Counted from the stretch's first letter, positions 5,071-23,725 are shown. The stretch is 24,000 nt of DNA from Alkalimonas delamerensis (GCF_030717955.1 NZ_JAUZVY010000001.1:211597-235596); one strand, 5' to 3'. Translations and numbers: made by a program. The notes: generated by a model from the letters alone, not told the origin.

Positions 5071-6651
5071 ATGCCAGCCAGCTATGCTCGTTTTATCAAG
5101 ACGAACGAGTTGTTTGGCATGGGTGTTCTGGTAGGGCTGTTGTTGCTGTTGTGGACTGCTGCTGTGCAGGCCGAGTCGTTGGGGAGTTTCAGCGTGGAAA
5201 CTGCCTGGCCGCTGTTGCTGGTCGTGTTGCTGGCACTGGTCGTTTGGTTGGGCTGGAAAGTAAGGCAATTGCAGCAGCGCCTGGCTGATAAAAATCAGGC
5301 GCAGAATGGCGATTACACCCTATGGCACGACGAGGTCACAGGCTTTCCCAACAAACAGTTGCTGCGCCAGCAACTGCAGCCTCTACTGCAACAAGCAGAG
5401 CAAAAGCACTATGGGCTGCTGTTGGTCAAAATTACCCATTTTGAGCAAATTAACGAAGCGCTCGGTTATCAGAACAGCAATCTGTTGCTGATGCAGCTGG
5501 CCCACCGCATCAATGCCTTGCTGCAGCCGCATGAGAACCTGCTTTGTCTGGAGTGGCGTGAAGAAAAAGCCATTCGACTTTGTCATTTGGGTGGTGTTGA
5601 TTTTGTTGCCTGGGTTGATGTCAGCAATAAGCCGCATCTGGCAGAGCAGCTGGCCAAGCAGGTGGAGCAATCCATCTCGGAACCATTGATGTTGCAAAGC
5701 AGCGCGATGAATGTGCAGTTGGTCACTGGCATTGCCTGTTACCCGGAGCACGGCAGCCAGTTGAATGAATTGCTGGAGCATGCTTTTTTAGCCTTGCAGC
5801 ACCATCGTTGGCAGGCGCCGAATAATCCGATGTTTGATCCTGAGCTGTTGTCCTACACCGACAACAAGTTACGGCTGATGGCGGAGCTGCGTCAGGGCAT
5901 AGAACAGAATCAGCTGCTGCTTTATGTTCAGCCTCAGATAGACTTGCAGCAACGCCAATTGCTGGCCGCAGAGGTCCTGGTGCGCTGGCAGCACCCCAGG
6001 TTGGGATTGCTGGCGCCGGAATACTTTCTCGAGATGGCGGAGCAACTCGGAGTGGTGTACTCCATGACCGAATGGGTACTGCAGCACAGTGTGGCTGCTC
6101 TGGCCGAGCTGAAAGCGGTCTACCCGAGTCTGAAGCTGGCAGTGAATTTGTCCAGTAAAGATCTGCTGCAAGCTGAGTTGATCGACTACCTACAAAGCTT
6201 GTTGGAGCAGCATCAGGTCAAACCAGCGTCTTTGGTGTTGGAGCTAAGCGAGCAAACCCTGGCCGATGATCCGGTACAGGCCCTGACCATGCTGCAACGT
6301 TTGGAGCAGCTTGGTGTGGAGCTGGCACTGGATGACTTTGGCACCGGCTTTTCATCGCTGTTTTACTTACGACAGCTTCCTATCAGTCATGTCAAAATCG
6401 ATTGCAGCTTTATCAATGACCTGCACAAGAGCGATGCACACATCGCCATCGCTGGCGCCATTATTGATATCGCCCGCAACTTAAAGTTGGAAGTGGTGGC
6501 TGAAGGCATCGAAGAGCAGGAGGTGGAGCAAAAGCTGCTACGGATGGGCTGCACCCGGGGGCAGGGTTTCTACTATTCCCGGCCCTTTGAACTAAAAGGT
6601 CTGGTACCCTGGCTTAAACAGTGGCAGCAATCGTCTGCGCCTCGAGCTTAG
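5071..6651 (+). CDS. Membrane-anchored degenerate-GGDEF / EAL protein, probable c-di-GMP phosphodiesterase
   Basis: 526 aa. There are two N-terminal hydrophobic segments (GVLVGLLLLLWTAAVQA and WPLLLVVLLALVVWLGW). The GGDEF-like domain has its signature degraded to LGGVDF. The EAL domain has its catalytic set intact (EVLVRW, AVNLS, ELSE, DDFGTGFSSL, KIDCSF, VAEGIE, GQGFYYSRP). Confidence 0.9.
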   Translation: MPASYARFIKTNELFGMGVLVGLLLLLWTAAVQAESLGSFSVETAWPLLLVVLLALVVWLGWKVRQLQQRLADKNQAQNGDYTLWHDEVTGFPNKQLLRQQLQPLLQQAEQKHYGLLLVKITHFEQINEALGYQNSNLLLMQLAHRINALLQPHENLLCLEWREEKAIRLCHLGGVDFVAWVDVSNKPHLAEQLAKQVEQSISEPLMLQSSAMNVQLVTGIACYPEHGSQLNELLEHAFLALQHHRWQAPNNPMFDPELLSYTDNKLRLMAELRQGIEQNQLLLYVQPQIDLQQRQLLAAEVLVRWQHPRLGLLAPEYFLEMAEQLGVVYSMTEWVLQHSVAALAELKAVYPSLKLAVNLSSKDLLQAELIDYLQSLLEQHQVKPASLVLELSEQTLADDPVQALTMLQRLEQLGVELALDDFGTGFSSLFYLRQLPISHVKIDCSFINDLHKSDAHIAIAGAIIDIARNLKLEVVAEGIEEQEVEQKLLRMGCTRGQGFYYSRPFELKGLVPWLKQWQQSSAPRA

Positions 6652-8401: not shown

Positions 8402-10270
8402 ATGTTTCGACAATTCAGTATCAAGCAGCGTTTGTTGGCCAATGGCCTGGCGCTTGTTATGGCCATGTTGGTGATGCTTGGTTTGCTGTTTTATCAAAGC
8501 AGCCAATTGACCAGTCTGGCGCAGGCGCAGGAAACGGTTCAACGGTTGAACACCGATGTGTTGATGTTCCGCCGGCATGAAAAAGATTTCTTGTTGCGAT
8601 TCGAATTGCGTTATCTGGAACGGATGCAGCAGCACTATGGGGCGATGCAACAACAAGCCGACTCATTGGATGCCTTGTTGCAACAGCATCGGATTGACCG
8701 TGGCCCTTTGCTTGAATTCCAACGCGATACTGAACGTTATCAGCAAAGTTTTACGGCGCTGGTGCGACAATACCAACAGATGGGTTTAACACCGGAGCAG
8801 GGGCTGCAAGGCGAGCTTCGCCATGCGGCTCAGCAGATAGAAAATCTACTGCAACAGCGTGGTGATGATCGTTTAATGGCGCAGCTGTTGCAACTGCGCC
8901 GGCATGAAAAAGATTTTTTATTGCGCCGCGATGCCGATTACTACCAGCGCTTTGGCCAGACCTTTCAGCAAATGCAAGCTTTGATGCAGTCGTTGGATGC
9001 TGTTGAGCGCCAGCAAGTTCAGCGGTTGGCCGCAGACTACCAGCAAGCCTTTGCCAATCTGGTTTCGGCGTATCAGCAGGCTGGTCTTGATCAAAATTCA
9101 GGCTTGCAGGGCGAGATGCGCCGCGCCATTCATGCCACCGAGCAAAGCTTGCAGCAATTGTCGCAAGCGACCGGTCAGGCCATTGCCAGCTCGGTCTCTC
9201 AAACGCAATGGTTGGCGCTTAGCTTCTTTGTGTTGGTATTGGGGGTGGTGTTGACTCTGGTCTTTATGACCAGCCGCAGTATTCTGCAGCCAATATTGGC
9301 AGTGTGCCAGACGGTTGGGCTGGTGCGGCAGGACAATGATTTTCGTCAGCGCATTCAGGTCGATGGTAAGGATGAAATGACGGCCCTGGCACAGGATGTG
9401 AATGGCATGATTGCGGACTTCCAGGATTTGGTCAACAACGTCAACCAGGCGCTGGATATGTTGGATACAGCTACCCAGCAACTGGCAAAATCGACCAATG
9501 AAACCAGCGATGGCATGCAGTTGCAGCAGCAAGAGAGCGATATGGTAGCGACCGCGGTTACGGAAATGGGGGCGACCATCAATGAAATTGCTGGTAATAC
9601 CGAAAGTACTGCCGATAAAGCCAGCACCACCAATGACAACGCCAAGCACGGTCAACAGGAGGTGGAAAAAACAGTCGCCGGCATCCAGCAATTGTCGACC
9701 GAATTGCAGGATGCAACCCAGGTGGTGGAAGCGCTGGAGCAGGACAGTCAGACCATTGGCTCCGTGCTGGATGTGATCCGGGGCATTGCCGAGCAGACCA
9801 ACTTGCTGGCGCTGAATGCAGCCATTGAAGCAGCCCGTGCCGGTGAGCAGGGCCGTGGCTTTGCGGTGGTGGCGGACGAGGTTCGAAACCTTGCGATGCG
9901 CACTCAGGAGTCCACCCGGCAAATTGAGCAAATCATCGGTGGTTTGCAGGGCCGTACCAAAGACATCGTTCAGGTGATGCTGCATTGCCGTGAACAGGGC
10001 TTATCCAGTGCCGAGCAGGCGCAATTGGCCCGGCAGCTGCTGGAACAAATTACCGAAGATGTCAGCGGCATTATGGACATGACCACTCAGATAGCTGCGG
10101 CCATCGAAGAGCAAAGTCAGGTGGCAGCAGAAGTGAACCAAAATGTGGTGAAAATTCGCGATATTTCGGTGCAGTCCTATCAGCATGCTCAGCACAATGC
10201 AGAAATCAGCGAAGAAGTTGCCATGCAGGCGGCCCGTTTGCATCAGACGGTGGATCGCTTTAAAGCCTGA
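8402..10270 (+). CDS. Methyl-accepting chemotaxis protein with a bimodular helical periplasmic sensor, HAMP domain and MA signalling domain
   Basis: 622 aa. TM1 is LANGLALVMAMLVMLGLLF. A periplasmic region of about 250 aa contains two copies of a roughly 109-aa module (RRHEKDFLLR occurs twice). TM2 is WLALSFFVLVLGVVLTLVF. The canonical hairpin tip is EQTNLLALNAAIEAARAGEQGRGFAVVADEVRNLA. GGAG lies 7 nt upstream of the ATG. Confidence 0.95.
   Translation: MFRQFSIKQRLLANGLALVMAMLVMLGLLFYQSSQLTSLAQAQETVQRLNTDVLMFRRHEKDFLLRFELRYLERMQQHYGAMQQQADSLDALLQQHRIDRGPLLEFQRDTERYQQSFTALVRQYQQMGLTPEQGLQGELRHAAQQIENLLQQRGDDRLMAQLLQLRRHEKDFLLRRDADYYQRFGQTFQQMQALMQSLDAVERQQVQRLAADYQQAFANLVSAYQQAGLDQNSGLQGEMRRAIHATEQSLQQLSQATGQAIASSVSQTQWLALSFFVLVLGVVLTLVFMTSRSILQPILAVCQTVGLVRQDNDFRQRIQVDGKDEMTALAQDVNGMIADFQDLVNNVNQALDMLDTATQQLAKSTNETSDGMQLQQQESDMVATAVTEMGATINEIAGNTESTADKASTTNDNAKHGQQEVEKTVAGIQQLSTELQDATQVVEALEQDSQTIGSVLDVIRGIAEQTNLLALNAAIEAARAGEQGRGFAVVADEVRNLAMRTQESTRQIEQIIGGLQGRTKDIVQVMLHCREQGLSSAEQAQLARQLLEQITEDVSGIMDMTTQIAAAIEEQSQVAAEVNQNVVKIRDISVQSYQHAQHNAEISEEVAMQAARLHQTVDRFKA
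8570..8925 (+). repeat. Intragenic direct repeat marking the duplicated sensor module of the MCP
   Basis: cgccggcatgaaaaagatttcttgttgcg (8570..8598) matches cgccggcatgaaaaagattttttattgcg (8897..8925) at 27 of 29 nt. The offset is 327 nt, which is 109 codons. Confidence 0.8.
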
Positions 10271-12788: not shown

Positions 12789-13307
12789 TTATAGCTGTTC
12801 AATGGTGTGGTGCTGGTTGGTAAAGACGCAAATGTTGCCAGCGATGGTCAGACTTTTTTCCACAATATCATTCGCGGACAGTTCGGTATTTTCCAGCAAG
12901 GCGGTTGCGGCCGCCTGGGCAAAAGGGCCGCCGCTGCCAATGGCAATCAAGTCATGCTCGGGCTGAATCACATCGCCGTTGCCGGTGATGATCAACGAGC
13001 TGTTGGCATCGGCAACCGCCAGCAAGGCTTCGAGACGGCGCAGCATGCGATCGGTGCGCCAGTCTTTCGCCAGCTCGACGGCGGCGCGCATCAGGTGGCC
13101 CTGGTGCATCTCCAGTTTGGCTTCAAAGCGTTCAAACAGGGTAAAGGCGTCGGCGGTGCCGCCGGCAAAGCCAGCCAGCACTTTGTTTTGGTAAAGGCGG
13201 CGTACTTTGCGGGCATTGCCTTTCATTACGGTATTGCCAAGCGAAACCTGGCCATCGCCGCCCAGTGCGACCTGGCCATTGCGGCGAACAGAAACGATGG
13301 TAGTCAT
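12789..13307 (-). CDS. hslV: ATP-dependent protease subunit HslV
   Basis: 172 aa, [39 protein letters not shown] with Thr2 as the nucleophile. Near-identical in pattern to E. coli HslV. A 12-nt gap separates it from hslU. Confidence 0.98.
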
Positions 13308-13340
13308 GAGGAGCCCTTAGTGGCAGTTCAGATAACGGCT

Positions 13341-13371
13341 ATCTGAGGGCTCCATGCTTGCTTTTCAAGGG
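13341..13371 (-). promoter_or_regulatory. Putative sigma32 heat-shock promoter of hslVU
   Basis: The minus strand reads CCCTTGAA (13371..13364), a 14-nt spacer, then CCCTCAGAT (13349..13341). The sigma32 consensus is CTTGAA, 13-15 nt, CCCCATnT. hslVU is a classical sigma32 operon in E. coli. Confidence 0.5.
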
Positions 13372-13377
13372 TGCTTG

Positions 13378-13908
13378 CTAGTTCCAGTTCCAGATTTGGC
13401 AACTGTTGATGCCGTTGCGGCGCAAGCGGTTGCGATCGGCTTCGGCCTGACGACGACTGTCGTAAGGGCCTAACACCACCCGGTACCAGACGCCGTTGCT
13501 GCCTTCGGTGCGGCGAATGCTGGATGAAAAACCGGCAAACGCAATTTGTGCCCGCATCGCATCGGCTTGCTCTTCGCTGCGAAACGAAGCGCACTGCATC
13601 TGAAAGGGGCCGCGCGACTCAAGCTCCCGTACTTCCACCGCCACTTCACGGTTTTCCAACTCACGAATGTATTGAAACGGCTCTTCGGTCGGTCGCTCTG
13701 GCAAGGGATCTTTTTCCACTTCAACCACCGGGGCAGCTGGTGTACTAACCGGCTCTTGCTGGTTGATGGTCCACAAAAACCAGCCAAACAGCAGCATCAA
13801 GCCTGCCGTCACCGACAGCAACAACCAGGGAAACGGCGCTTTGGCCGGCGCTTTTTTGCGAGGCTTGGCTTTTGGGCGGGCGGTTTTTACATAATCACGT
13901 CGTGGCAT
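13378..13908 (-). CDS. ftsN: Cell division protein FtsN (short form, SPOR domain)
   Basis: 176 aa. Cytoplasmic MPRRDYVKTARPKAKPRKK, one TM segment (WLLLSVTAGLMLLFGWFLW), the FQYIRELENRE motif matching the E. coli FtsN essential segment WRYIKELESRQ, and a C-terminal SPOR domain (MQCASFRSEEQADAMRAQIAFAGF...WYRVVLGPY). It keeps the conserved position upstream of hslV. Confidence 0.8.
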   Translation of the reverse strand: MPRRDYVKTARPKAKPRKKAPAKAPFPWLLLSVTAGLMLLFGWFLWTINQQEPVSTPAAPVVEVEKDPLPERPTEEPFQYIRELENREVAVEVRELESRGPFQMQCASFRSEEQADAMRAQIAFAGFSSSIRRTEGSNGVWYRVVLGPYDSRRQAEADRNRLRRNGINSCQIWNWN

Positions 13909-13942
13909 GAGCGCCGGGACCTCCTACAGCAATTCAGCCGCC

Positions 13943-13972
13943 ATTCTAGCGGTTTAAGAGGCAACAGTGCAA
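13943..13972 (-). promoter_or_regulatory. Possible sigma70 promoter of ftsN (TTGCAC, 18-nt spacer, TAGAAT)
   Basis: On the minus strand, TTGCAC is at 13972..13967 and TAGAAT at 13948..13943. GGAGG lies 10 nt upstream of ATG 13908. Sequence match only. Confidence 0.3.
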
Positions 13973-14011
13973 TCGACAACCTTACAACAGCTCAGCCAAT
14001 AAGCTAAGCCT

Positions 14012-14033
14012 ATGAAAGAACCGCTAAAGGTTC
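14012..14033 (-). terminator. Weak candidate terminator at the end of tal
   Basis: The minus-strand RNA reads GAACC-UUUAGC-GGUUC followed by UUUCAU. The 5-bp stem overlaps the tal TGA stop. The stem and U-run are both short, so this is at best a leaky terminator. Confidence 0.2.
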
Positions 14034-15621
14034 AAAACGTATTGAGGCTGTCTGTGGTTGCTTCATCAAATAATGTCATCAAGGGTCTTACTTGATCCGG
14101 ATCCGCCAATGCGGCTGCAAGGTTGGCAATGTCTTCAGCCAGCGGGCGATCCTTTTGCAAAGGCGCTGCAAAGTCGCGAACCCAGCCGCAGAGCGTTTGC
14201 GAGGCATGGCTAAGCACTTCGCGGTTTTTTAACTCGGCGCCCTGCGCCAGGATAAGAGCTTCAATTGCTAAGATCTGATAGAGCTGGGTTAAACTAATGC
14301 TGGCACGCCTAGCTGCGATGGTGCCTAAGGGGACTATATCCTGGTTGTCGGCATTGGTTGGGATCGACTGGATGGAAGCAGGCATGGCCTGGCTACGAAG
14401 CTCCGCGACCAATGATGTAGCGCAGACTTGGGCTCCCATAAAGCCACTATGCAAACCGGTATCCTGTGGTTGCATAAAGGCAGGTAAGCCTTTATTTTTC
14501 AACGGGTCGGTAATACGTGCAATCCGACGTTCGCTGTAAAGTGCCATTTGGATCAGGGCATTGTTCAGGTGGTCACTGGCAAAAGCCAAGTGTTGGCCAA
14601 AGAAGTTGCCGCCATGCAGTACCAGTTGTTCATCCACCAGCAGCAGCGGGTTATCAGTCACTGAGCCGATTTCAATACGCACTGTACTGGCATGCTGACT
14701 GACTACGTCCAGCACGGCTCCTAACGCCTGTGGTGCACAGCGCAAGGTATAAGAATCCTGTAGCAGTGGACGGTTTTGCGCGATATCCTCTGACATTTCC
14801 GCCAGTCGTTCGGGGGTTGCTTGCCAGGGCGTTAACGCCTGACTACTGGCCGATAGCGACCAGAGCCAGCGGTGCAGTTGTTGCTGACCAGGGTGAGGCC
14901 TTAGTTTACCAATGGCTGGATGAAAGGCTTCACGATGACCTGTCAACAGCTCTGAGTAGAGCAACACCAGCAAGGTGCTCAGCTTCACGGCTCGCTCTGC
15001 AGCGGTAGCGTTTAAAGCTGCAATACCAGCGGTTGCTGAGGTGCCATTAACTAAGGCAATGGCATCTTTGCCATGCAATACCAGTGGTTGCCAACCGAGC
15101 TGCTGATGTGCTGTGGCACTCTCTATCCAGGAGCCGCCATTGATACTGACACGGCCGCCGCCACTGAGTGCACGTGCCAAATGCGCCAGTGGGGTTAAAT
15201 CGCCGCTGGCGCCGACTGTTCCTTGCGACGGTATCTCAGGCACGACATCTGCCGTTAGCCAGGCTTGCATGCGTTGCAGCAATGCGGGGTTAGCCCCCGA
15301 GTGACCAAGCGCCAGGCTGGCGATACGGGCGACCATCATGGCGCGGACATGCTGGCGCGCCAGCGGTTTACCTACACCACTGCAAAGATGGTACACCAGG
15401 TTTTGTTGCAACTGTGCCGACTGCCTTGGGTCCACCTCCGTGGTTGCTAAGGGGCCATAGCCTGTGGTGACACCATAAATACGCTGGCGTTTGGTGATGC
15501 CATCCAGCAGAAACTGATGTGCTTCAGACACTGTTTGTTGTTGTGCCTCAGACAAAACCAAGGTTTGGCGGCCAAGAGCAATGGCCTCAATGGCTTCAAG
15601 CGTGAACTGCTCATCGTGCAT
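14032..15621 (-). CDS. tal: Tyrosine ammonia-lyase (MIO-dependent aromatic ammonia-lyase) supplying p-coumarate for PYP
   Basis: 529 aa HAL/PAL/TAL-family protein. The MIO triad in GTVGASGDLTPLAHL has codons at 15202..15210. The substrate-selectivity position reads Tyr-His-Leu (LVYHLCSGVG, codons 15385..15393), as in bacterial TAL, rather than Ser-His as in histidase. AAGGA lies 10 nt upstream of the ATG. It is the last gene of the pyp operon. Confidence 0.85.
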   Translation of the reverse strand: MHDEQFTLEAIEAIALGRQTLVLSEAQQQTVSEAHQFLLDGITKRQRIYGVTTGYGPLATTEVDPRQSAQLQQNLVYHLCSGVGKPLARQHVRAMMVARIASLALGHSGANPALLQRMQAWLTADVVPEIPSQGTVGASGDLTPLAHLARALSGGGRVSINGGSWIESATAHQQLGWQPLVLHGKDAIALVNGTSATAGIAALNATAAERAVKLSTLLVLLYSELLTGHREAFHPAIGKLRPHPGQQQLHRWLWSLSASSQALTPWQATPERLAEMSEDIAQNRPLLQDSYTLRCAPQALGAVLDVVSQHASTVRIEIGSVTDNPLLLVDEQLVLHGGNFFGQHLAFASDHLNNALIQMALYSERRIARITDPLKNKGLPAFMQPQDTGLHSGFMGAQVCATSLVAELRSQAMPASIQSIPTNADNQDIVPLGTIAARRASISLTQLYQILAIEALILAQGAELKNREVLSHASQTLCGWVRDFAAPLQKDRPLAEDIANLAAALADPDQVRPLMTLFDEATTDSLNTF

Positions 15622-15643
15622 AGCATTTTTTCCTTGGCAACCG

Positions 15644-16771
15644 CTACCAGTCTATCCGCTTACCGATAACATTGGTTGGGATGACGTCACCATAAGTGAT
15701 GCTAATGGGGCGTTCTGGCGCTGGCCAGAGTGCGATCGTGTTGGCGATATCATGCTTAGCAGTTGCATGATCGCCTGCCGGGACGACAAAGGCTTTCAAG
15801 CGTCTTTTCGCATTGAGCCCTGTGGGACGTATTTCGCAGTCCTGTACGCTACTTAACGCTCGTAAACGACTGGCAATATAGCTTGGGCTGACATTGACGC
15901 CAGCAATGCTGATGGTGTCATCCAGCCTCCCTTGCAGCTCAAAAGCGCATTCGTTGAGCCAGTGCAGCTGATCCATCAATGGGGTCATGGTACTATCCCC
16001 CCGACGTTGAATATGCTGGTTGTCAAAACGCTGCCAGTGCGACAGTAGCTGATAGTTTGATTCAGGCCGCCAGCGCGTAGCGACACCGCCCGTTTCTGTA
16101 CTGCCGTAAATATCTAGCAAACCAATCAATCCCTGTTGCAGCAAGCTGGCTACAGTGGCGTCGCTGAGTGGTGCAGTAGAGCTAACGCCAAGTATCTGTG
16201 CCGGCCAGGCTTTGCCCGTTCGTGCCAGATAGTCCCAGCGAGGTGGCACAGTCACTAGCAGATCACCACTTAGCACTTCAGGTAAAGTTTGGTTGCCATA
16301 AATCCGTGGCACTTTGGCGTAGGCGGGCAATGCTACCGCCAGCATAAAGCCGTACAGGTGATGCAGTGGCAGCCAGCTCACAACACGCTGGATAGGCTGC
16401 TTTGCTGTCAGTCGCTCAGCCAATGCAGCGGCTTCCGTTTCAATCTGCCGCCAGGTGTGAACGTGAGGGGTTGGAGAGCCAGTGCTGCCAGAGGTTCTGA
16501 AAGTAAGCCCCGAAGTTTCGCTAATGGCTGCTGCTATCAATGCTGCCCATTCATCCAGGCTTTTGGTCATCAACAACCGATCTTCTGCCCCGGTTTCATG
16601 CAAACGGAAAAACTCGTTGACGCAGCTGGCAAGATGCAGCCGCTCCAATGAATCGAGCTCCGATGGCTGTTGCCCATCGGGGATGGGCGCTCCACGGTAC
16701 GCGCTCAACTCTGCCCGTACAAAATCGTTTAAAACAGCTTTACAGTCTGTGATGGTGAGCCAGCTTGGCAT
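15644..16771 (-). CDS. pcl: p-Coumaroyl-CoA ligase (short adenylate-forming enzyme) for PYP chromophore activation
   Basis: 375 aa from ATG 16771 (AAGGA 6 nt upstream). The ORF-track ATG at 16789 has a pyrimidine-rich upstream region with no RBS. ANL-superfamily motifs are FRTSGSTGSPT, DIYGSTETGG, ISIAGVNVSPSYI and C-terminal IGKRIDW. It lies between pyp and tal, with a 22-nt gap to tal. Confidence 0.85.
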   Translation of the reverse strand: MPSWLTITDCKAVLNDFVRAELSAYRGAPIPDGQQPSELDSLERLHLASCVNEFFRLHETGAEDRLLMTKSLDEWAALIAAAISETSGLTFRTSGSTGSPTPHVHTWRQIETEAAALAERLTAKQPIQRVVSWLPLHHLYGFMLAVALPAYAKVPRIYGNQTLPEVLSGDLLVTVPPRWDYLARTGKAWPAQILGVSSTAPLSDATVASLLQQGLIGLLDIYGSTETGGVATRWRPESNYQLLSHWQRFDNQHIQRRGDSTMTPLMDQLHWLNECAFELQGRLDDTISIAGVNVSPSYIASRLRALSSVQDCEIRPTGLNAKRRLKAFVVPAGDHATAKHDIANTIALWPAPERPISITYGDVIPTNVIGKRIDW

Positions 16772-16810
16772 CGCAGATCCTTGATGCATGCAAGAGGGGT
16801 AAGGCGAAGT

Positions 16811-16832
16811 CTGGCTGCTAACCGGTAGCCAG
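16811..16832 (-). other. Intercistronic stem-loop between pyp and pcl
   Basis: The minus-strand RNA reads CUGGCU-accgguuagc-AGCCAG, a 6-bp stem. An alternative pairing is GCUGCU...AGCAGC. No U-run follows, so it is not a canonical terminator. Confidence 0.35.
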
Positions 16833-16852
16833 GTCAGCAGCTTTGAGTTGAT

Positions 16853-17236
16853 TTACAGTCGTTTGACAAAAATCCAGTAGCTATCACCAGCCATCGCTTT
16901 TTTCATGTGGACTTTTACTTTGGTGGGTTTCATCTGGTAATCAAAGACGTATTCAAACATGGTGTTCAGATTGCCGTTTTGAACCCCTTCTTTAAAACGC
17001 CCCTGAAACTCTTTGCTTTGGGTACATGGCGCCACGCTGGTAAAAAAGTTCTTACCAATGACGCTTTTCGGGTCACGACCGGTAATATCGCCTTCGGCAG
17101 CATTGTATTGCAGGATTTTACCACTAGCATCGAGTTGGATGGCACCAAAGGCGAGCTTATCGAGGCTTTGGTCATCCATCTTTGCCAGTGAGTTTTCGAT
17201 GTCATCGCCGCCGAAACGAATAGTTTCTAATGTCAT
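16853..17236 (-). CDS. pyp: Photoactive yellow protein (PAS-fold blue-light photoreceptor)
   Basis: 127 aa from ATG 17236 (AAGGT 7 nt upstream). The ORF-track start 17242 is a TTG two codons earlier. [127 protein letters not shown] aligns without gaps to Halorhodospira halophila PYP as I recall it. The chromophore Cys (codon 17024..17026) and the Tyr42, Glu46, Thr50, Arg52 and Met100 equivalents are all conserved. Confidence 0.95.
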
Positions 17237-17271
17237 AGACAATACCTTATCTGTTGGTGATGCTCATTAAA

Positions 17272-17335
17272 GTTAGCTTACGACCAGCGCGTTAAAAGCG
17301 TCTAATATTTAGTAGTTGGCAGAATTTAAGCTAAC
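17272..17335. promoter_or_regulatory. 9-bp inverted repeat GTTAGCTTA / TAAGCTAAC (46-nt spacer) plus a tandem TTAGCT half-site in the AT-rich pyp upstream region
   Basis: GTTAGCTTA is at 17272..17280 and TAAGCTAAC at 17327..17335. An adjacent AGCTAA at 17337..17342 gives a second half-site. The nearest arm is 36 nt upstream of the pyp ATG. No clear sigma70 hexamers were found. Confidence 0.35.
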
Positions 17336-17442
17336 AGCTAAACATAAGCATAGCACATAACTTCACCCTACTTGCTTGTGTTTTAACGGGTCTGTGCGAG
17401 CCGGTTTTTTGTGTTTGGTCCAAAAGCGATATGGAGCTGGAT

Positions 17443-19617
17443 CTAAGACAGATCAATCGGATCCACATCCAGTTGCCAGCGCAGCTTGCGTGTCAGTGAC
17501 CAGCTTTGACTGGCGTCAATCAGTTGATCAAGCAGTTGGTGCAGGCCTGCGCGGCTGGCGCTGTAACAATGAAGTTGCCAGCGGTACTTGCCGGCTTTGC
17601 GCTCCAATGGCGCTCGGATTGGGCCCAGCAACTGCACCTGCGGCGCCTGGACCTTTGCCAGTGCAACCAACTGGTGCAGCCACTGCTGTGGCAGCTCATC
17701 CTGATGAGCCTCGGCCCGCAGCAGCGCCAAAAACTGGTAAGGGGGCAGTTGGGTTTGTTCGCGCTCGCTCAGTGCCAGTCGGGCAAAGGACGGGTAGCCG
17801 TTGTGAATGATGTCCTGCAAGATGCCATGGTCCGGGTAACGGCTTTGCAGCAGCACCTTGCCGGCATGTTGCGCCCGGCCGGCGCGGCCAGCCACCTGGG
17901 TGATTAATTGCGCCAGCTGCTCCGGTGCCCGAAAATCGCTGCTAAACAGAGCACCATCGACATCCACAATCACCACCAGGGTGACTTTGGGAAAGTGATG
18001 GCCTTTGGCCAGCATCTGGGTGCCAACAATCAGCTGGGGGCCGCCTTCGGTAATGTGTTGCAGGGCTTCGGCCAGACTGCCTTTGCGCCGGGTGCTGTCG
18101 CGATCCAGCCGCACCACCGGAACATCCGGAAACATCGGTTGCAGCTGAGCTTCCAGTTGCTCGGTGCCCTGACCCAGTGGCACCAGCCGGGTACTGCCGC
18201 AGTGGCCACATTGGCGGGGGACCGGTCGGCTGCTGCCGCAGTGGTGGCAGTTGAGCTGGCGATCCTGCTTGTGCCAGGTCATGCTGGCATCGCAGCGCTG
18301 GCAATCGGCCACCCAGCCGCATTCATCGCACGACAAAGCCGGGGCGAAGCCACGCCGGTTTAAAAACAGCATCACCTGAAAGCCTTGTTGCAGGGTCTGT
18401 TTGATTTGCTGAATGGTGCTTTCGGCCAGGCCAAAGTGGACCGGTTGTTGCTGCAGATCAATCAGCTCCAGGCCAGGCAACTGTTGGCCACTGGCCCGGT
18501 TGTGCAGTTGCAGCAGTTGGAAGCGGCCTTGCAGTGCATTGTGCAGGCTTTCCAGGCTGGGCGTGGCCGAGCCTAACACCACCGGGCATTGCTCCAGTGC
18601 TGCTCGTTTTACTGCCAGATCGCGGGCGTGGTAGCGAAAGCCATCCTGTTGCTTCAGCGAAGGATCGTGCTCTTCATCCACCACGATCATGCCCAGTTTG
18701 GCAAAACGCAAAAACAAAGCCGAGCGGGTGCCAATGACAATGGCCGCACTGCCGGTGGCGGCATGCTGCCAGCAGGCCAATCGCTCGGTATCGGTAAGCC
18801 CGGAATGCCAGCTAAGTACCGGCACGGCAAAGCGGCGGGAGAAGCGCGCCAGGGTTTGCGGCGTCAGGCCGATTTCTGGTACCAGCACCAGTACCTGCTT
18901 GCCTTGTGTCAGCAGCGGGGCGATGCTTTGCAGATAGACTTCGGTTTTGCCAGAGCCGGTGATCCCTTCCAGCAAAAAAGGCTGAAAGCGTCCCTGAGCC
19001 TGCACGATGGCAGAGACCGCCAATGCCTGATCGGTGGTGAGCGTCAGCCCGGATTGCGGCGTTAACAGCGGCTGGTAGGGGGCAAAGGGCTTTTCTTTCT
19101 GGCTGACCAGGCCTTTTTGCCGCAGGGCCTTGAGTGCCGGCCGTTGTTCGCTTTGGATGGCCGTCTCATCCAGCGCCTGCTGCTGCAGTTGTTGCCACAG
19201 TGCCTGCTGTTTGGGGGCCCGGGCTAAATCGCCTGCGCTTAGTGCCTGGCCTGCGTCGCTCAGCTGGTAGTGGATGCTTTGATGGGCCGGCAGGGCTTTG
19301 CCTTCGCGCAACAAGGCCGGGATGGCGGCCACCAGCACTTCGCCCAGTGGATGGTGGTAATAATCGGCGGCAAAAGAAAGCAGTTGGCACAAGGCTGCGG
19401 ACAGCACCGGGCTGGGGTCCAGCACCTCCAGCACCTCTTTTAAGGCATCGGAGCTAAAGCCATCGCTGGGTTCCAGCTGCCAGGCAATGCCAATCAGTTC
19501 GCGCTTGCCAAAAGGCACCCGCACCCGACAGCCCACCTGCACCTGCATGCCGGCAGCAAGCAGGTAATCGAAGGATTGACGCAAAGGGACTGGCAAAGCA
19601 ACCCGGATCACTGGCAC
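17443..19617 (-). CDS. priA: Primosomal replication-restart helicase PriA
   Basis: 724 aa from GTG 19617 (AGAGG about 10 nt upstream), giving (M)PVIRVALPVPLRQSFDYLL, matching E. coli [20 protein letters not shown]. The ORF-track ATG 19743 adds 42 non-conserved residues. It has Walker A GITGSGKTEVY, DEEH, and the Cys-rich zinc region CDECGWVADCQRCDASMTWH...CHHCGS...CGHCGS. Confidence 0.93.
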   Translation of the reverse strand: MPVIRVALPVPLRQSFDYLLAAGMQVQVGCRVRVPFGKRELIGIAWQLEPSDGFSSDALKEVLEVLDPSPVLSAALCQLLSFAADYYHHPLGEVLVAAIPALLREGKALPAHQSIHYQLSDAGQALSAGDLARAPKQQALWQQLQQQALDETAIQSEQRPALKALRQKGLVSQKEKPFAPYQPLLTPQSGLTLTTDQALAVSAIVQAQGRFQPFLLEGITGSGKTEVYLQSIAPLLTQGKQVLVLVPEIGLTPQTLARFSRRFAVPVLSWHSGLTDTERLACWQHAATGSAAIVIGTRSALFLRFAKLGMIVVDEEHDPSLKQQDGFRYHARDLAVKRAALEQCPVVLGSATPSLESLHNALQGRFQLLQLHNRASGQQLPGLELIDLQQQPVHFGLAESTIQQIKQTLQQGFQVMLFLNRRGFAPALSCDECGWVADCQRCDASMTWHKQDRQLNCHHCGSSRPVPRQCGHCGSTRLVPLGQGTEQLEAQLQPMFPDVPVVRLDRDSTRRKGSLAEALQHITEGGPQLIVGTQMLAKGHHFPKVTLVVIVDVDGALFSSDFRAPEQLAQLITQVAGRAGRAQHAGKVLLQSRYPDHGILQDIIHNGYPSFARLALSEREQTQLPPYQFLALLRAEAHQDELPQQWLHQLVALAKVQAPQVQLLGPIRAPLERKAGKYRWQLHCYSASRAGLHQLLDQLIDASQSWSLTRKLRWQLDVDPIDLS

Positions 19618-19731
19618 GGCTAAGGTTACCTCTGACTGTGGCCTGGGCCACCGATGAATGAAGCTATTAGTGTATCGACAGGGGCCCTGGCTTCGCAACC
19701 GAAAAAGCACGGAGAATCCTGCAGTCGGCGC

Positions 19732-19760
19732 TTGCATGGCCATGGCAGATCGAATAAACT
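19732..19760 (+). promoter_or_regulatory. Possible sigma70 promoter of rpmE (TTGCAT, 17-nt spacer, TAAACT)
   Basis: TTGCAT is at 19732..19737 and TAAACT at 19755..19760. This would give a leader of about 80 nt before ATG 19845. Sequence match only. Confidence 0.3.
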
Positions 19761-22816: not shown

Positions 22817-23725
22817 ATGCTCCTTGTGCCTACCACTGAAAGCCCGCTCATTGAAGATTTTCTGCAGCAGCTCTGGCAAGAGTCGGCGACCAGTCGCCAT
22901 ACGCTCAGCGCCTATGGCAGCGATTTGCGGCATTTTGCTTTATTTTTAACCAAAGAAGGAACAGGCCTTGGCTTGCTGCAAGCCCAGCCTCAGCATGTTG
23001 AAGCTTATCTTGCCGAGCGGGTCGACCACCATTACAGTGCACGCAGCACCTCGCGGCTGCTTAGCGCCTTGCGGCGCTTTTACAACTGGCTGCAACAAAG
23101 TGGTCAGCGTCAGGATCACCCGCTGGCGCAGACGTTAAACCCCAAGTTGGGACGAAGCTTGCCAAAAACCTTGTCGGAAGCGGAAGTGGAAGCCTTGTTG
23201 CAGGCGCCGGATCTGAGCGAAGCCATTGGGCTCAGGGATAAAGCCATGCTGGAAGTCTTGTATGCAGCAGGGCTGCGGGTCAGTGAGCTGGTGGGCCTGA
23301 CATTGCGTCAACTCAATTTGCGTCAGGGGGTGCTGCTGGTGCAGGGCAAAGGGCGCAAAGAGCGGTTGGTGCCCATTGGTGAAGAAGCGATGGACTGGCT
23401 GCAGCGCTATTTACGCGAAGCAAGGCCAGAGCTGCTGCGTCAGCCGGGCGAGGTCTTGTTTCCCAGCAGCCGTGGGCAGCAGATGACCCGTCAGACCTTC
23501 TGGCATCGGATTAAGTTTTACGCTAAGGTAGCGGGCATTCAGAGTCCGCTGTCACCGCATACCTTGCGCCATGCTTTTGCCACGCATTTATTGAATCATG
23601 GCGCCGACTTGCGGGTGGTCCAGCTGCTGCTTGGCCACAGCGATTTATCCACAACACAGATTTACACACACATTGCGCAGGCCCGCTTGCAGGACTTGCA
23701 TCAACAACACCACCCTCGGGGTTAA
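22817..23725 (+). CDS. xerD: Site-specific tyrosine recombinase XerD (chromosome dimer resolution)
   Basis: 302 aa with RDKAMLEVLYAAGLRVSELVGL, GKGRKERLVPIGEEA, LSPHTLRHAFATHLLNHGADLRVVQLLLGHSDLSTTQIYTH and C-terminal QQHHPRG, nearly superimposable on E. coli XerD. The fldB-xerD-dsbC synteny is kept. Confidence 0.95.
   Translation: MLLVPTTESPLIEDFLQQLWQESATSRHTLSAYGSDLRHFALFLTKEGTGLGLLQAQPQHVEAYLAERVDHHYSARSTSRLLSALRRFYNWLQQSGQRQDHPLAQTLNPKLGRSLPKTLSEAEVEALLQAPDLSEAIGLRDKAMLEVLYAAGLRVSELVGLTLRQLNLRQGVLLVQGKGRKERLVPIGEEAMDWLQRYLREARPELLRQPGEVLFPSSRGQQMTRQTFWHRIKFYAKVAGIQSPLSPHTLRHAFATHLLNHGADLRVVQLLLGHSDLSTTQIYTHIAQARLQDLHQQHHPRG

Follow-up and report, generated by a model that had tools for sequence, protein, structure and literature searches.

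A predicted self-sufficient pyp-pcl-tal photoreceptor operon between priA and ftsN in Alkalimonas delamerensis

Three genes in a 24,000-nt stretch of the Alkalimonas delamerensis genome (GCF_030717955.1, NZ_JAUZVY010000001.1:211597-235596; hereafter the window, with positions counted from its first letter) very probably represent the classical pyp-pcl-tal operon in this species, which would be a blue-light photoreceptor cassette complete in itself; we put the probability of this reading at about 0.93. The three open reading frames lie on the minus strand in the same orientation, span positions 14032-17236, and encode a stand-alone photoactive yellow protein (PYP), a short ligase predicted to activate p-coumarate (pCL), and an aromatic ammonia-lyase predicted to act on tyrosine (TAL). 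An earlier note on this DNA, made from the sequence alone, had proposed such an operon with gaps of 81 nt between pyp and pcl and 22 nt between pcl and tal, and the coordinates and gaps match exactly; the pattern is not one that chance would produce. There is nothing unusual in the three-gene arrangement: loci of this kind have been described before, and published surveys already list an almost identical copy. The new points of this analysis are modest, namely a conserved promoter and a carrier-like domain of pCL, the rest being already known.

The photoreceptor apoprotein

Against the curated model TIGR02373, the pyp product scores 211.7 bits (cut-off 143.05, E 2.5e-63) over the full length of the model, positions 1-124. 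Its alignment to the solved PYP of Halorhodospira halophila is gapless, with 97 of 125 residues identical (78%, E 1e-64). The residues of the chromophore pocket are all kept, and Y42, E46, T50, R52, C69, F96, Y98, M100, and W119 in H. halophila numbering correspond to Y44, E48, T52, R54, C71, F98, Y100, M102, and W121 in the window protein, whose numbering is shifted by +2. The gapless alignment, the intact pocket, and the thioester cysteine had all been read from the sequence in the earlier note, and the profile and database search that it proposed as a check of PYP now bears it out, since the model is matched above its cut-off and the protein is 100% identical to the NCBI entry "photoactive yellow protein [Alkalimonas delamerensis]".

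Translation of pyp starts at the ATG at 17236, from which the 127-aa product is identical to the database protein. A TTG two codons upstream was considered as the start and is unlikely, because the ATG is preceded, at a distance of 8 nt, by an AAGG ribosome-binding site. For pcl the start is the second ATG, at 16771, which is preceded by AAGGA and gives a 375-aa product identical to the NCBI protein.

The two chromophore enzymes

The ligase gives a strong match, 317.4 bits (E 1e-94), to TIGR02372, the family model for the 4-coumarate-CoA ligase of PYP activation, although the model's cut-off of 334.7 is not reached. Its adenylation motifs (Table 1) are invariant or nearly so across 80 homologs. 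In the sub-clade of the window pCL the usual lysine of the P-loop GxPK is replaced by threonine, and the closest homologs, from Halomonas and Rheinheimera, share the features of this sub-clade. Pfam AMP-binding covers only residues 99-242 of the 381-aa translation from the upstream ATG, and a sequence search of solved structures with pCL returned no close relative. An AlphaFold2 (AF2) model built with the 80 homologs reached a predicted local distance difference test score (pLDDT) of 92.7, and its core matches adenylate-forming ligases of the ANL type, with the short ligase 4gs5 at the top. The short adenylate-forming ligase that the earlier note had recognized is consistent with the family match and the intact motifs.

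The tal product belongs to Pfam Lyase_aromatic (PF00221, E 4e-144). Which amino acid would such an enzyme use? Its best solved relative is the TAL of Rhodobacter sphaeroides (RsTAL, 2o6y; E 1.8e-102), with tyrosine aminomutases (1e-85) and histidine ammonia-lyases behind. The selectivity switch of these enzymes reads Ser-His in histidine ammonia-lyases (HAL), Phe-Leu in phenylalanine ammonia-lyases, and His-Leu in TAL; the His-Leu form is also found in tyrosine aminomutases. In the alignment, "NLVYHLCSGVG" of the window lyase falls on "NLVHHLASGVG" of RsTAL, so that the His-Leu pair of the window enzyme (Table 1) lies on RsTAL His89-Leu90, and the catalytic Tyr49 is aligned with RsTAL Tyr60. 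Together with the Ala-Ser-Gly triad that would form the 4-methylideneimidazole-5-one (MIO) group, this agrees with the MIO ammonia-lyase bearing a TAL-type switch that had been proposed. The lyase is 60% identical to that of the H. halophila pyp operon, and of 47 pyp-linked lyases in other genomes, 36 retain the His-Leu motif. A separate hutH, whose motif is Ser-His ("VLSHAAGYG"), extends past the left edge of the window and lies beside hutU, hutC, hutI, and hutG. Because this genuine hutH sits in a hut cluster in the same window, the pyp-linked lyase is not the histidine-utilization enzyme.

From these assignments a route to the chromophore-bearing protein can be proposed. TAL would deaminate tyrosine to p-coumaric acid, pCL would activate p-coumarate with ATP, and the activated acyl group would end as a thioester on Cys71 of the 127-aa apoprotein, which would thereby become holo-PYP. 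Given the 78% identity to the Halorhodospira protein, this product would be expected to show absorbance near 446 nm and the usual trans-cis photocycle.

Table 1. Features of the cassette and other sensory genes, in window coordinates
Feature	Position	Strand	Description
pyp	16853-17236	-	127 aa, photoactive yellow protein, single PAS domain, no output domain
Chromophore Cys71 of PYP (H. halophila Cys69)	codon 17024-17026	-	from gapless alignment
pcl	15644-16771	-	375 aa, PYP-type ligase predicted to activate p-coumarate, short adenylate-forming (ANL) core
N-terminal domain of pCL, residues 1-88	16508-16771	-	four predicted helices, resembles carrier protein
Asp40-Ser41 of pCL	16649-16654	-	start of helix II
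P-loop TSGSTG, pCL residues 93-98	16478-16495	-	motif
YGSTE, pCL residues 222-226	16094-16108	-	motif
GRLDD, pCL residues 281-285	15917-15931	-	motif
Catalytic Lys371 of pCL	15659-15661	-	C-terminal motif
tal	14032-15621	-	529 aa, MIO-dependent aromatic ammonia-lyase, predicted tyrosine ammonia-lyase
His-Leu selectivity switch, His78-Leu79 of lyase	15385-15390	-	aligned with RsTAL His89-Leu90
MIO triad Ala-Ser-Gly, residues 138-140 of lyase	15202-15210	-	motif
Putative pyp promoter	17328-17356	-	-35-like GTGCTA 17356-17351, 17-nt spacer, extended -10 CTGTTAGCTT 17337-17328
Intercistronic stem-loop	16814-16841	-	11 nt after pyp stop, 10-bp stem GCUGCUGACC/GGUUAGCAGC, no U-tract
Methyl-accepting chemotaxis protein	8402-10270	+	622 aa, HAMP and MCP signalling domain
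GGDEF-EAL protein	5071-6651	+	526 aa, no recognized sensor domain in first 84 residues

Occurrence, origin, and selection

How widespread is this kind of locus? The earlier note called PYP rare among bacteria, which holds only in a relative sense: surveys report 789 and 984 homologs (PMC9664959 and PMC12826048), and a database search with the window PYP returned 1,871 clusters. For comparison of neighbourhoods, 80 loci of close PYP relatives were taken from species-representative genomes, numbered L001 onward, which makes 81 with the window included. In 74 of the 81, pyp is followed by a pcl homolog; a lyase homolog occurs in 46, and among the 80 fetched loci at least 45 have tal after pcl. 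PMC12826048 describes pyp-pcl-tal of H. halophila as the first, prototype pyp operon, and cites co-expression of the enzymes from homologous genes in E. coli as having already given holo-PYP (Kyndt 2003, via PMC12826048). An A. amylolytica ortholog with its neighbourhood is found in the supplements of both PMC9664959 and PMC12826048.

The cassette is flanked on one side by priA (17443-19743) and on the other by a gene for an FtsN-like SPOR-domain protein (13378-13908), followed by hslV and hslU. A stand-alone PYP with no fused output, set among housekeeping genes, is what the earlier note had described, and the single PAS domain and these flanks agree with it. The same backbone occurs in E. 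coli as rpmE-priA-(cytR)-ftsN-hslVU-...-rraA, with cytR filling the gap. Among the fetched loci, the placement between priA and ftsN is shared by only two other Alkalimonas genomes; the surroundings of the cassette are different in Rheinheimera, A. collagenimarina, Halomonas/Vreelandella, and others. GC content at third codon positions (GC3) is 0.50-0.55 in the three cassette genes and 0.60-0.72 in each of the window's 18 remaining genes. Compared with A. amylolytica, pyp, pcl, and tal have ratios of nonsynonymous to synonymous substitution rates (dN/dS) of 0.03, 0.15, and 0.08, respectively, and the dS of the cassette, about 0.6-0.8, is similar to that of the flanking genes. Because of the low GC3, the different contexts elsewhere, and the low dN/dS, the cassette looks to have been acquired horizontally and kept under selection, and it looks old in the lineage. 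It would have entered the priA-ftsN gap of a conserved priA/ftsN/hslVU block and afterwards been inherited vertically within part of the genus. A gene for a XerC/XerD-type tyrosine recombinase lies at 22817-23725 (+), beyond priA and about 5.6 kb away; it is probably one of the housekeeping genes xerC and xerD and not a cassette-associated integrase.

Transcription of the cassette

A candidate promoter lies about 100 nt upstream of pyp (Table 1), with a predicted transcription start near 17321 and a predicted leader of about 85 nt. In 28 of the 80 loci the pattern TTGnnn-N13-CTGnTAnnnT precedes pyp at a constant distance; shuffled sequences yield 0.24 such cases on average and 2 at most. Its carriers fall within L001-L034 and L046, and in them it is located approximately 60-130 nt upstream of pyp. 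In an alignment of 11 sequences drawn from at least three genomic contexts, the CTG.TA..TT columns do not vary, whatever the upstream gene. In the window, the -35 element departs from the conserved TTG at one base. We infer from this conservation that the promoter travels with the cassette across genomic contexts, and the three genes are most likely transcribed from this extended -10 promoter of their own.

Between pyp and pcl, the transcript could form a stem-loop, which is seen in the centroid structure. Stem-loops of differing sequence occupy the same position after pyp in most of the closest loci (L001-L025), several of them with a U-tract. Such an element may act by partial termination, as an attenuator, or as a stabilizer of the mRNA, setting the ratio of PYP to the enzymes; in the window it may raise PYP output relative to that of the two enzymes. 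An Rfam scan of positions 13300-17600 gave no match at E<=1. A 9-bp inverted repeat, GTTAGCTTA/TAAGCTAAC, in the pyp leader was set aside, as it is not conserved in L001. In the Halomonas/Vreelandella/Halovibrio loci L008-L025, TACAA/TTGTA and TGTA(C/T)A palindromic repeats, for example "TACAATTCTTGTATATGTTTTGTA", lie between the -10 element and pyp, about 40-90 nt upstream of the gene; they are absent from the window. These repeats could be an operator for a regulator, and we take them to resemble light-responsive LitR-type boxes.

A carrier-protein-like domain at the N-terminus of pCL

The first 88 residues of the 375-aa pCL are not ANL sequence and are left unannotated by both Pfam and NCBI. 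Alignment of the pCL family profile with 4gs5, a short ANL structure, does not begin before profile position 98, and the short ANL core stands alone in that structure; the N-terminal part is therefore an add-on. It carries "LDSLERLHLASCVNEFF", and Asp40-Ser41 is invariant in the 80 homologs, at identities down to 35%. Pfam PP-binding (PF00550) matches 10 of 31 N-terminal segments, with a best E of 1.3e-4 and one segment (P0376) above the gathering score; the window's own segment is not matched by this model. A profile search of the PDB with the domain places acyl carrier proteins (ACPs) first, at marginal E and with the DSL motifs aligned, and hhalign against E. coli ACP gives E 1.3e-3. When the domain profile was run against 1.84 billion representative proteins, only 560 matches were obtained at E<=1e-3. 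One of these is a five-fold tandem PP-binding (ACP) protein (E 1.6e-17, five matching stretches), and hhalign of the domain with one of its ACP repeats gives E 6.4e-5 over 52 columns, placing Ser41 on the phosphopantetheine serine.

The structural comparison points the same way at lower strength. In the AF2 model the domain has helices at residues 7-26, 41-55, 63-66, and 72-85, and the best Foldseek hits of the isolated domain are ACP domains, with template modelling (TM) scores of 0.51-0.55, none of them significant. Just two residues separate the domain from the P-loop strand, and AF2 packs it against the core with high confidence. Like carrier proteins (PF00550) and adenylation-carrier didomains, the pCL domain has a predicted four-helix layout, a (G)xDS(L/I) motif, and a serine at the start of helix II; unlike them, it lies N-terminal to the adenylation core, has almost no linker, and makes up a small distinct family. 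On these alignments the domain is probably homologous to carrier proteins. It is a property of the whole pCL family and not specific to the window, and a search confined to open-access literature gave no mention of it. Short matches that seemed to be stand-alone copies of the domain were discarded: P0376 is cut by the end of its contig, and P0363, on a 665-nt contig with no downstream ligase, is unreliable. P0428, which resembled a PYP-pCL fusion, is instead a frameshifted read-through.

Signalling partner and other sensory genes

What does PYP signal to? When the open reading frames within 10 kb of pyp were clustered over the 81 loci, the only families that recurred across contexts were pcl and tal. 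The other recurrent clusters were rejected as partners: CIA30, AceK, and Sir2 in Halomonas reflect synteny at the level of the genus, and SDR, LysR, Crp, and Zn-ADH are common families. Linkage to GGDEF-EAL genes, present within 10 kb in 19 of the 81 loci, is about the chance level by a rough estimate. The output partner would thus be encoded outside the operon, as the earlier note had supposed from the absence of a fused output domain. That note also took the cassette for the only clearly non-core sensory system in the window, which is mistaken, as a methyl-accepting chemotaxis protein (MCP) and a GGDEF-EAL protein are encoded there too (Table 1). As partners of PYP both were rejected: the MCP gene, about 4-7 kb away, and the GGDEF-EAL gene, about 7-9 kb away, are on the other strand behind housekeeping genes, with no evidence of linkage. 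A further claim, that no signalling partner is established in any organism, is nearly right, but a binder of Rhodobacter capsulatus PYP has been reported in vitro. This PYP-binding protein, encoded beside R. capsulatus pyp, binds the UV-activated R. capsulatus protein; it fails to bind Halorhodospira PYP, and the Halorhodospira genome encodes no homolog of it (bioRxiv 10.1101/2021.06.01.446672).

Some features of these neighbouring genes deserve mention in their own right. The MCP has an uncharacterized N-terminal region of about 290 aa, and a conserved counterpart of its gene occupies the corresponding position in two further Alkalimonas genomes (L001 and L002). The GGDEF-EAL gene begins 15 nt past hutI, inside the hutH/hutU/hutC/hutI/hutG cluster, an odd place for an enzyme of cyclic di-GMP metabolism. 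At other loci, a gene for a Crp/Fnr-family regulator recurs near the cassette in three genera (L003, L004, L006, L064, and L074), and in Rheinheimera loci it is directly downstream of tal (L003 13641-14435).

Relation to known systems

The window locus resembles the H. halophila pyp-pcl-tal operon in its gene order, in its stand-alone PYP of about 125 aa with an identical chromophore pocket, in its TAL, and in a pCL of the same short family. It differs in its host, a non-phototrophic alkaliphilic gammaproteobacterium, in its position between priA and ftsN, in two extra N-terminal residues of PYP, and in the Lys to Thr change in the P-loop of the pCL sub-clade. Much closer is the locus of Alkalimonas amylolytica (WP_091338811.1; Xing et al. 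2022, Dohmen et al. 2025), which has the same order of priA, pyp, ligase, lyase, ftsN, and hslVU and whose proteins are 96% (PYP), 91% (TAL), and 79% (pCL) identical to those of the window. It belongs to another species, and neither paper names the exact proteins of the window.

Idiomarina loihiensis, a non-phototrophic gammaproteobacterium of marine or saline habitats, likewise has a stand-alone PYP of the Halorhodospira kind followed by pcl, and Idiomarina PYPs are about 75% identical to the window protein. The I. loihiensis PYP regulates biofilm in blue light. Idiomarina-group loci differ from the window in a divergent pCL (about 33% identity) and in having no linked lyase or one of "FHGC" type instead of "YHLC". 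In the Idiomarina/Aliidiomarina group (L036-L059, L067, L070, L074-L075, and L079), the pyp-linked lyases are divergent as well, at about 33% identity, with "NLTFHGC-GLG" replacing the "YHL" switch, and several loci lack any linked lyase; p-coumarate may come from a different source in this group.

With the TAL of R. sphaeroides and R. capsulatus (2o6y), the window lyase shares the MIO fold, the His-Leu switch, the catalytic tyrosine, and the proposed pathway; it aligns with RsTAL over essentially its whole length, yet is clearly divergent from it. Rhodobacter TAL and pCL have been used for heterologous production of holo-PYP, and Rhodobacter PYP has different spectral forms. The gene for the PYP-binding protein adjoins pyp in Rhodobacter, whereas no comparable small gene stands next to pyp in the window.

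Alternative readings

Several results weigh against a complete and active pyp-pcl-tal operon. Because tyrosine aminomutases share the His-Leu switch, the sequence by itself does not prove the lyase activity. The lyase reaches the cut-off of none of the curated NCBIfam models: it scores 359 bits against the FlxA TAL model (cut-off 700) and 261 bits against the BagA TAL model (cut-off 1000), NCBIfam having no model for TAL of the PYP type. The ligase falls 17 bits short of the TIGR02372 cut-off, and the NCBI protein to which it is 100% identical is called only "AMP-binding protein [Alkalimonas delamerensis]". A generic scan for sigma-70 promoters and intrinsic terminators called none in the cassette region, and the stem-loop after pyp, with a z-score of -0.83, is no better than shuffled sequence. 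Might the lyase instead act as a tyrosine 2,3-aminomutase or be a paralog of histidine ammonia-lyase, p-coumarate being supplied in another way? Its top NCBIfam scores, all below cut-off, are 437 and 427 bits with HAL models and 389 bits with tyrosine 2,3-aminomutase; its homologs are frequently labelled "histidine ammonia-lyase" in databases, and PMC12826048 describes substrate calls for pyp-linked lyases as uncertain. We nevertheless consider this reading very unlikely, given that the hut cluster of the window already has a genuine hutH with the Ser-His motif, that RsTAL is closer than any HAL or aminomutase among solved relatives (both of these at 1e-85 or weaker), that the His-Leu switch is retained, that the short gap to pcl accompanies an order repeated at 45 or more loci, and that the lyase of the H. 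halophila pyp operon is so similar. Scarcely credible is the view that the cassette is a decaying or silent remnant of horizontal acquisition, with no working photoreceptor in this species. Its foreign composition (GC3 at least 0.60 elsewhere in the window), the lack of a called consensus promoter or terminator, and the deviating -35 element would fit a remnant, but all three reading frames are intact, every functional motif is retained, the -10 element is conserved, and the dN/dS values of 0.03-0.15, at a dS of about 0.6-0.8, are on par with those of the housekeeping neighbours.

A third alternative leaves the operon in place and concerns how pCL works. Rather than being a simple ligase for free CoA, pCL might be a carrier-adenylation didomain, in which Ser41 is phosphopantetheinylated, p-coumarate is loaded on the enzyme's own arm, and the acyl group is passed to apo-PYP. 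Asp40-Ser41 is as invariant as otherwise only the catalytic motifs are, and the probable homology to PP-binding and ACP domains, the predicted ACP-like helix pattern with serine at the start of helix II, and the add-on nature of the domain all fit such a mechanism, as does the account of PMC3992019 (2014), in which the PYP ligase counts as a mere "hint" of 4-coumarate-CoA ligase activity and not as an enzyme shown in vitro. Yet the 2-residue linker and the confident packing on the core are unlike a mobile carrier domain, the PP-binding model misses the window's own segment, the fold matches to ACP are not significant, and a phosphopantetheinyl transferase does not recur among the open reading frames within 10 kb of pyp at the 81 loci. 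Moreover, holo-PYP was formed in E. coli with TAL and pCL only (Kyndt 2003, cited in PMC12826048), and PMC12826048 gives the product of the ligase as p-coumaryl-CoA; the published support for formation of p-coumaroyl-CoA (PMC12826048, PMC3992019) consists of in-vivo reconstitution only. We therefore regard the didomain mechanism as doubtful. The broader proposal, that PYP-type ligases in general combine a functional carrier-homologous domain with a minimal adenylation core, the domain either tethering p-coumarate for Cys69 of apo-PYP or docking with apo-PYP and handing the acyl group over, is put forward tentatively, as a possibility that we would not favour at present.

Meaning of the locus

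As a pyp-pcl-tal operon, the locus adds one more species to a catalogued family, in which the automatic annotation of PYP is right and the names given to both enzymes ("AMP-binding protein" and "aromatic amino acid ammonia-lyase") are too generic. The cassette moves as a unit with its own predicted promoter and without a signalling partner, so that the question of PYP output is restated rather than solved. The N-terminal domain of pCL has wider implications if it does serve as a carrier. Attachment of the chromophore would then be carrier-mediated, and not a spontaneous reaction with free p-coumaroyl-CoA, and the accepted picture of attachment would change. This would bear on the production of holo-PYP and of PYP-derived optogenetic and fluorogenic tags in heterologous hosts, for example on the question of whether a phosphopantetheinyl transferase must be co-expressed.

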